DNA from: a virus
Taxonomy: Duplodnaviria; Heunggongvirae; Uroviricota; Caudoviricetes
DNA: 13,488 nt
Direction: 5' to 3' (one strand)
IMG/VR virus record: IMGVR_UViG_2534681835_000038
Span: 1-13,488 of that record
Every line of letters starts with the position of its first letter. The stretch's first letter is position 1. This document shows, piece by piece, positions 8,137 to 8,220 of this stretch. The translations under genes and the position numbers were made by a program. The notes beneath the pieces are model-generated. The model worked only from the letters and a program-made list of their open reading frames with translations, was not told where the DNA came from and did no database searches.

Positions 8137-8220
8137 AGAAATAGAAATAGAAATAGAAATAGAAATAGAAATAGAAATAGAAATAGAAATAGAAATAGAA
8201 ATAGAAATAGAAATAGAAAT
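8137..8220. repeat. Perfect hexanucleotide microsatellite (AGAAAT)14 with degenerate flanking units
   Basis: 14 identical tandem units counted directly, 84 bp; flanking sequence (agaaac aaatcg aaatac ...) looks like decayed copies. Intergenic, between the HNH/ninG start and the AT-rich cassette. Confidence 0.95.

Follow-up and report, generated by a model that had tools for sequence, protein, structure and literature searches.

Short tandem repeats are among the typing markers of Escherichia coli that produces Shiga toxin (STEC). One of them, a hexanucleotide repeat used in MLVA (the analysis of variable-number tandem repeats at multiple loci), is known as VNTR-9, and also as O157-9 (Keys/Hyytia-Trees), Vhec4 (Lindstedt) and TR1 (Noller); the equivalence of VNTR-9, Vhec4 and TR1 is given in PMC3321953 (Table 1). 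Its 6-bp unit was published as AAATAG, together with the TR1 primer (PMC2246123, Table 2). VNTR-9 was described with 15 alleles and a range of 6-23 repeats; its diversity index, 0.90, was the top of eight loci, null alleles stood at 31.7%, and its position was given as 'inside ORF Z3935/Z3936' (PMC3321953). During serial passage Vhec4 mutated at a rate of 1.3e-4 per generation, with single-unit insertions and one point mutation (PMC3777172, Table 2). In O157:H7 strain Sakai the locus lies in prophage Sp17, which was described as severely degraded and was negative in all three functional assays (Asadulghani et al., PMC2669165). The present analysis concerns a hexanucleotide array, (AGAAAT)14, in a 13,488-bp stretch of viral DNA (IMG/VR record IMGVR_UViG_2534681835_000038, positions 1 to 13,488; hereafter, the window). 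The chromosome of E. coli O111:H8 strain 8E contains the window at 100% identity; the window lies in a lambdoid prophage of E. coli O111:H8 that is degraded and adjoins yfaA/gyrA. The array is the known hypervariable marker VNTR-9 / O157-9 / Vhec4 / TR1, and is already known as such. It is very probably a selectively neutral, hypermutable microsatellite that was born in the dead orfA gene of an insertion sequence (IS) of the IS3 family.

The array was located by exact string match, which returned exactly (AGAAAT)14 within a maximal period-6 run at 8137-8221. Tandem Repeats Finder reported 8133-8221, with a period of 6, 14.8 copies, 98% matches, a score of 171 and the consensus AAATAG, in agreement with the published unit. 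The composition of the plus strand of the array is A56 G14 T14 C0. Apart from a trivial A8 run, it is the sole microsatellite with a unit of 2-7 and at least 4 copies in the 13.5-kb window, and chance origin is therefore excluded. The initial annotation had described a perfect array of fourteen units, about 200 bp from the start of an HNH endonuclease gene and about 190 bp from a promoter-like element; the array was borne out by both methods, and the distances were measured as 198 bp (to the HNH ATG) and 187 bp (to the TTGACG-N15-TGTAAT element).

The forward primers published for VNTR-9 (PMC3321953, Table A1; PMC10062581, S5 Table) and for TR1 both match the window exactly and without mismatches (Table 1), where 0 matches would be expected by chance. 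In O157:H7 Sakai (locus L002, prophage Sp17) an array of 9 copies lies between the same flanks as in the window, namely the HNH/ninG left flank and the initial 15 bp of the right flank, ATTAAAACAGACCAC. After these 15 bp an IS30 fragment follows in Sakai, whereas in the window an IS911-like relic runs on to a 590-aa gene. The left flank occurs as two haplotypes that are two bases apart, CCACAACAAAC in the window and TCACAACAAAT in O157. At the level of primer sites and flanks, the array locus is shown to be identical by descent to VNTR-9 / O157-9 / Vhec4 / TR1, here in an O111-type context.

The DNA that surrounds the array was compared with phage genomes by blastn (7900-8460 as the query), and IS911 in Sf6 and SfII was returned at ~73% identity (E 2e-18); in the Sf6 annotation the matched region is IS911 orfA/orfB. 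ISEc52-family transposases were matched by tblastn with the same element, and the nearest live relatives found were ISEc52-family and IS911 elements at ~60% protein identity. By these alignments, window 7955-8372 is identified as the relic of an IS911/ISEc52-like element of the IS3 family, with the array inside it. The core of the left inverted repeat (24 bp) is identical to that of IS911. After it, an internal deletion of ~117 bp took out the orfA start codon and ~27 codons. The orfA frame then meets an in-frame stop at 8039-8041 and has no ATG, GTG or TTG between that stop and the array, which is therefore non-coding. In conceptual translation the orfA remnant carries LKQTTTFLMSYSLNNFST after (EI)14, and was matched to IS911 OrfA by BLASTP (E 9e-22) and to NCBIfam transpos_IS3 at E 3e-4, under the curated cut-off. 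The heptamer A AAA AAG, which we take to be the programmed -1 slippery site of IS911, begins 3 bp past the array and is mutated (TTA AAA CAG in the window vs TTA AAA AAG in IS911/ISEc52). The orfB motif VDTLCYVFGV...YWKN is present, in the order orfA-orfB seen in IS3 elements; IS similarity stops at ~8372, and only ~80 bp of orfB are left. The element thus shares with IS911 and ISEc52 the left inverted-repeat core, collinear orfA and orfB (~73% at the nucleotide and 46-60% at the amino acid level) and a heptamer directly after the repeat-forming segment. It differs from them in being dead and truncated, with the orfA start deleted, a premature stop at 8039, the heptamer changed to A-AAA-CAG and no right inverted-repeat partner found for the left one; it is a relic and not a live IS. 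A miniature inverted-repeat transposable element was also considered as a source of the array, and was rejected, as no inverted repeats lie around it.

The segment equivalent to the array reads ATT GAA ATG GAG AAT GAA ATA (IEMENEI) in IS911 and ACT GAA ATG GAA AAT GAA ATA (TEMENEI) in ISEc52, and in both consists of three imperfect GAAATN-type hexamers directly 5' of TTA AAA AAG. The live elements have three imperfect units, GAAATG-GAAAAT-GAAATA, where the window element has 14 hexamer copies. The sequences that flank the array to the left (CAGAAACAAATCGAAATACATGAAC) and to the right (ATATTAAAACAG) had been taken in the initial annotation for decayed copies of the repeat; they match the IS911/ISEc52 orfA coding sequence base for base, and by this alignment are ancestral IS coding sequence and not decayed repeat units. 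The location had also been called intergenic, which holds only insofar as the region is a pseudogenised IS remnant. An IS origin of the array was not found in the literature searched (IS911 + VNTR + O157).

From these comparisons the following origin is the most likely. In a lambdoid phage, an IS911/ISEc52-like element of the IS3 family would have entered the DNA immediately upstream of HNH-ninG. The inserted element would then have decayed, presumably through deletion of the orfA start, gain of a stop, loss of the frameshift heptamer and truncation of orfB. With selection on orfA gone, the segment GAA-ATG-GAA-AAT-GAA-ATA (EMENEI), which we take to be part of the coiled-coil region of OrfA, could have become a perfect GAAATA proto-repeat, and this would have expanded by replication slippage. 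The array would now gain and lose whole 6-bp units, at ~1e-4 per generation as in the published passage, giving the 4-23 copies found among strains.

Copy number was compared across strains, and ranges from 4 to 23 over complete genomes, Stx1 phages and IMG/VR contigs in otherwise identical flanks, which agrees with the slippage-prone character that the initial annotation had ascribed to the array. Among complete E. coli genomes, 524 of 5426 carry the array plus at least one flank. With a 2.2-kb query, and with copies inferred from record spans, named O111:H8 strains have 2.1 kb of flanking DNA at 100% identity and spans that differ by multiples of 6 bp, giving 7, 8, 9 and 14 copies; the Australian O111 isolates of 1995, 95NR1 and 95JB1, have equal spans that imply 7 copies each. 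Other arrays were counted directly from sequence, with the flanks unchanged in all. They have 4 copies in O157 ECP19-198, 6 in 96_1414P, 7 plus one variant unit in PEC240, 9 in O157 Sakai, 14 in the window, strain 8E and O157 H2495, 17 in the Stx1 phage SH2026Stx1 and 23 in strain 7_15_5C.

The allele distribution was taken from 58 genomes, sampled in even steps down the ranking of the 524, with copies inferred from record spans (copies:records; 28 records with both flanks, 4:0, 6:1, 7:4, 8:6, 9:5, 10:4, 11:3, 12:3, 13:1, 14:1, >=15:0; 30 O157 records with the IS30 flank, 4:1, 6:1, 7:1, 8:1, 9:5, 10:5, 11:3, 12:3, 13:4, 14:2, >=15:4). It is unimodal, with its centre at 8-10 copies and no preference for odd or even numbers. 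The 32 IMG/VR contigs have 4-13 copies, and in some of these arrays variant units are duplicated (AAATGG three times, AAACAG twice), a pattern that reads as a signature of slippage. The junction sequence gave 0 exact matches in other species (one genome for each of 185,579 species).

Four points weigh against a neutral microsatellite of IS origin. Neutrality, though most likely, is an inference, as are the slippage mechanism and the order of the decay events. The putative ancestral sequence was reconstructed from relatives that are ~60% identical at the protein level, and was not observed. Alleles with 0-3 units gave 0 matches in IMG/VR; descent from a single, already expanded ancestor is most likely the reason, and a constraint against loss could also be. 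Finally, at least two Stx1 phages that are intact (SH2026Stx1 and AU6Stx1) carry the array within the nin region, where the early region lies on one side of it and the antiterminator gene Q downstream; it is therefore presumably transcribed as (AUUUCU)n in lytic growth, and an effect at the RNA level is conceivable.

The best-surviving alternative, unlikely as it is, is that of a contingency locus, in which changes in copy number would act on the spacing of promoters, on helical phasing or on curvature, and thereby switch or tune the HNH-ninG operon and/or the divergent AT-rich gene. Distal repeats tune expression in some systems, such as the TAAA repeats of Neisseria nadA and the 7-bp repeats of Haemophilus hmw, and the contingency loci of these genera share with the array a hypermutable short tandem repeat, whole-unit changes and a slipped-strand mechanism, presumed to be the same. 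Hypermutability of the tract is real, each added unit turns the flanks by ~203 degrees relative to each other, which would shift the phasing of sites on either side, and weak promoter-like sites lie on the cassette side (8408-8434, plus; 8498-8468, minus). However, contingency loci have a live open reading frame (ORF) with a unit that is not a multiple of 3, or a promoter adjacent to the repeat. The window array, unlike those of Haemophilus and Neisseria, is crossed by no live ORF, has a unit that is a multiple of 3 and lies away from any recognisable promoter; beside it lie a pseudogene and an operon of the phage nin region, and no ON/OFF phenotype is known.

Promoters were sought over 7800-8600. 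A scan for the strict sigma-70 consensus returned 0 sites in this region, vs 3.3 expected from shuffles, and a relaxed scan returned three sites (Table 1). No sigma-70-like hexamer pair spans or abuts the array or lies within ~120 bp of it, which speaks against an effect on promoter spacing. Curvature was computed over 124 bp with Bolshoy/Trifonov dinucleotide wedges (parameters after Bolshoy et al. 1991), and the values are a model result and not a measurement: the ratio of end-to-end to contour length was 0.999 for the array with its flanks, 0.967 +/- 0.024 for 300 random window segments and 0.33 for a phased A-tract control. In this model 87% of the random window segments were more bent than the array, which is predicted to be intrinsically straight, and at the level of this model the curvature hypothesis was rejected. 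The 6-bp period has no Fourier component at the helical repeat and lacks the A-tract phasing of ~10-11 bp that curved DNA has. Also against regulation, the alleles have no odd/even or bimodal pattern, the array is still polymorphic in O157:H7, where the IS30 fragment replaces the cassette side, the cassette gene is a frameshifted pseudogene in the window, and the tract descends from IS coding sequence and not from a regulatory region. Of the interpretation in the initial annotation, slippage, which is known for this locus, held; phase-variable control through promoter spacing or curvature is not supported, on evidence that is negative and not decisive.

It is still less probable that the array works as an RNA element. 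The G-free minus-strand repeat, with a UC dimer every 6 nt, could be a length-tunable Rho-loading (rut-like) or U-rich protein-binding tract on the nin transcript ahead of HNH-ninG-Q; in a plus-strand version, (AGA-AAU)n would offer successive A-R-N triplets, the motif that Hfq binds with its distal face. Both the rut and the A-R-N rules are general motif rules. The RNA of both strands folds with 0 base pairs (minimum free energy 0.0), and the position of the array ahead of Q in the two Stx1 phages fits such a role. Position and composition are what the proposal rests on, and the likeness is one of motif only. The C content is 17%, low for rut sites; Rfam gave no family match at the array at the gathering score or at E<=1; and free variation between 4 and 23 copies, together with the origin in an IS pseudogene, argues for drift. 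There is accordingly a very small chance that (AUUUCU)n modulates Rho loading, RNA stability or translation by copy number. If it did, the typing marker would also set heterogeneous expression of Q and of Shiga-toxin or late genes among otherwise clonal STEC.

A protein-coding repeat is more improbable again. All three frames are open across the array, as (EI)n on the plus strand and as (IS)n and (FL)n on the minus strand; RefSeq holds a 66-aa hypothetical protein at the array, and coding sequence was annotated at the locus both in EDL933 (Z3935/Z3936, to which the position given in PMC3321953 refers) and by the Prokaryotic Genome Annotation Pipeline (PGAP). Against this, the plus frame is stopped at 8039 and has no start before the array, and the minus-strand ORFs are antisense to the IS pseudogene, are without a family match (no PHROG match for the (IS)n ORF) and have a length that merely follows copy number. 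The (IS)n annotation is a length-threshold effect, because in the sampled genomes the RefSeq/PGAP 'hypothetical protein' was present only at inferred copies of at least 11 and none was listed at 10 or fewer. The poly(FL) and poly(IS) frames, which had been suspected to be artefacts, exist and are artefacts, and annotation pipelines call a spurious 'hypothetical protein' once the array is long enough. An artefact of assembly or sequencing of a low-complexity region has next to no probability and was rejected: short-read assemblers can mis-size long perfect repeats, but clean flanks surround the array in hundreds of complete genomes, and it also occurs in phage genomes and in IMG/VR contigs and was sized by polymerase chain reaction in MLVA schemes in papers from 2008 to 2023.

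The neutral microsatellite of IS origin is thus kept, and its context bears on the typing assays. Both published reverse primers (VNTR-9 and TR1) sit in the partial IS30 of the O157 version only, and neither matched the window with up to 3 mismatches allowed. As both reverse-primer sites lie in this O157-only fragment, the standard VNTR-9 and TR1 assays should, from the primer positions, score null in the O111-type context. The IS30-borne reverse primer would explain null scoring outside O157. The Izumiya loci EHC, EH111 and EH26 were considered as O111/O26 aliases of the array and rejected, since none of their primers match the window; nor did the remaining Izumiya/PulseNet primers.

The insertion point of IS30 in the IS911-like relic lies 15 bp past the array, and corresponds to window 8235/8236. 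One part of IS30 is retained beside the array in O157 Sakai (L002, 4217-5020), and the complementary part is joined to the right flank of the relic and the 590-aa gene in strain SMN197SH3 (L010, 657-1490), near tail-fibre J/Lom genes. The two parts are complementary and therefore point to an IS30-mediated rearrangement between prophages, which is a plausible source of the VNTR-9 nulls that were reported for German O157 isolates (32%). In some O157 lineages, nulls may stem from such a rearrangement, or from prophage loss, parting the primer sites. In some genomes (H42, H58 and H63) two places match the 411-bp array region; some strains therefore have the VNTR module in more than one of their prophages, and this could yield double MLVA peaks.

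The coordinates of the features are collected in Table 1.

Table 1. Features of the window at and around the (AGAAAT)14 array.
Feature	Position	Strand	Basis
HNH endonuclease gene (HNH_3 + AP2-like domain)	7372..7938	minus	RefSeq, Pfam, PHROG 99
VNTR-9 (O157-9) PulseNet/Izumiya forward-primer site GCGCTGGTTTAGCCATCGCCTTCTTCC	7923..7949	plus	exact match
IS3-family relic, IS911/ISEc52-like (left inverted repeat, truncated orfA, start of orfB)	7955..8372	plus	blastn, alignment, translation
Left terminal inverted repeat, core CTGAATTTGGCCACCTGAACAGAG	7955..7990	plus	alignment to IS911
orfA pseudogene ...AKAMDVGISTIPRWRK* LHDKPQGKGKTLPPIIQKQIEIHELKKKPQQT(EI)14LKQTTTFLMSYSLNNFSTTW*	7991..8284	plus	translation, frame check, BLASTP
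(FL)n ORF, artefact	7998-8279	minus	ORF list
Noller TR1 forward-primer site ACTGCATGATAAGCCTCAGG	8041..8060	plus	exact match
(IS)n ORF, artefact	8089..8289	minus	ORF list, RefSeq
Perfect (AGAAAT)14 microsatellite, MLVA marker VNTR-9 locus	8137..8220		string match, Tandem Repeats Finder, primer sites
Inactivated -1 frameshift heptamer, A-AAA-AAG to A-AAA-CAG	8224..8230	plus	comparison with IS911/ISEc52
orfB N-terminal remnant VDTLCYVFGVQCNIYKYWKN	8303..8362	plus	aligned to IS911 OrfB
Promoter-like TCTACA-N15-TAAAAT	8343-8369	plus	relaxed scan
Weak promoter-like TTGACG-N15-TGTAAT, upstream of the cargo gene, outside the IS relic	8408-8434	plus	relaxed scan only; missed by the strict scan
Promoter-like TTGATA-N19-TAAAAT	8498-8468	minus	relaxed scan
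'AT-rich cassette', one gene, 590 aa when intact	8510..10308	plus	SH2026Stx1 gp36, WP_000612805

The minus-strand order of the neighbouring genes in RefSeq is NinE, the array region, HNH endonuclease, NinG, a Ser/Thr phosphatase, antiterminator Q and lysis genes. An integrase and an excisionase directly adjoin NinE in the RefSeq annotation, and the immunity and replication region is therefore missing from the prophage. The Shine-Dalgarno sequence of the HNH gene lies ~5 bp from the end of the IS relic. At the start of this gene, window 7910-7951 (42 bp) is 97.6% identical to the ninF/ninG junction of many P22-like and lambdoid phages, among them HK544, Sf101 and BTP1. By this match, the HNH ORF seems to rely on the start region that originally belonged to ninG, as though the endonuclease gene had entered ninG at its 5' end. 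An IS911 in the same relative orientation disrupts ninG in Sf6.

The prophage region is rich in IS elements. On the left of the window (4-636; L001, 123-1336) the prophage remnant is bordered by a copy of IS1203 (IS3 family), in which a frameshift pseudoknot is annotated. In strain PEC240 (L009, 248-1410) a complete IS3 element lies between the HNH gene and the array, within the left part of the relic; the site has thus seen three IS events, the other two being the IS911-like relic and IS30.

The AT-rich cassette on the other side of the array is interrupted in the window by a 1-bp deletion at 9430, which splits the 590-aa gene into two ORFs (8510-9442 and 9481-10308); the Stx1 phage SH2026Stx1 and many STEC genomes carry the gene intact. 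Pfam, PADLOC and NCBIfam gave no match for it, and it falls into PHROG 9230, of unknown function. Its product has a Ser/Thr-rich N-terminus, and its orientation, opposite to the nin genes, is typical of morons. At 8512-8513 a 1-bp indel and a substitution distinguish the window (ATG-GAAACC) from SH2026Stx1 (ATGAAAAACC). The change lies just upstream of the GGAGGA-TTG start of the cargo gene at 8537, and shifts the annotated start (8510 or 8537). The indel probably accounts for those matches in the O111:H8 comparison that have a 1-bp longer span.

As a discovery the array carries little weight, being an established epidemiological marker with most likely no function for the cell; its IS origin is a useful footnote, as is the reliance of the standard assay on the IS30 flank. 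The array is present and equally polymorphic in O111, O145 and other STEC, and with a reverse primer in the relic, which is conserved (8236-8360, for instance), it would become typable in non-O157 STEC. The locus would be a clean case of the birth of a microsatellite, in which a near-repetitive coding segment, part of orfA in an IS3-family element, turned into a perfect array of hexamers once the gene had died.

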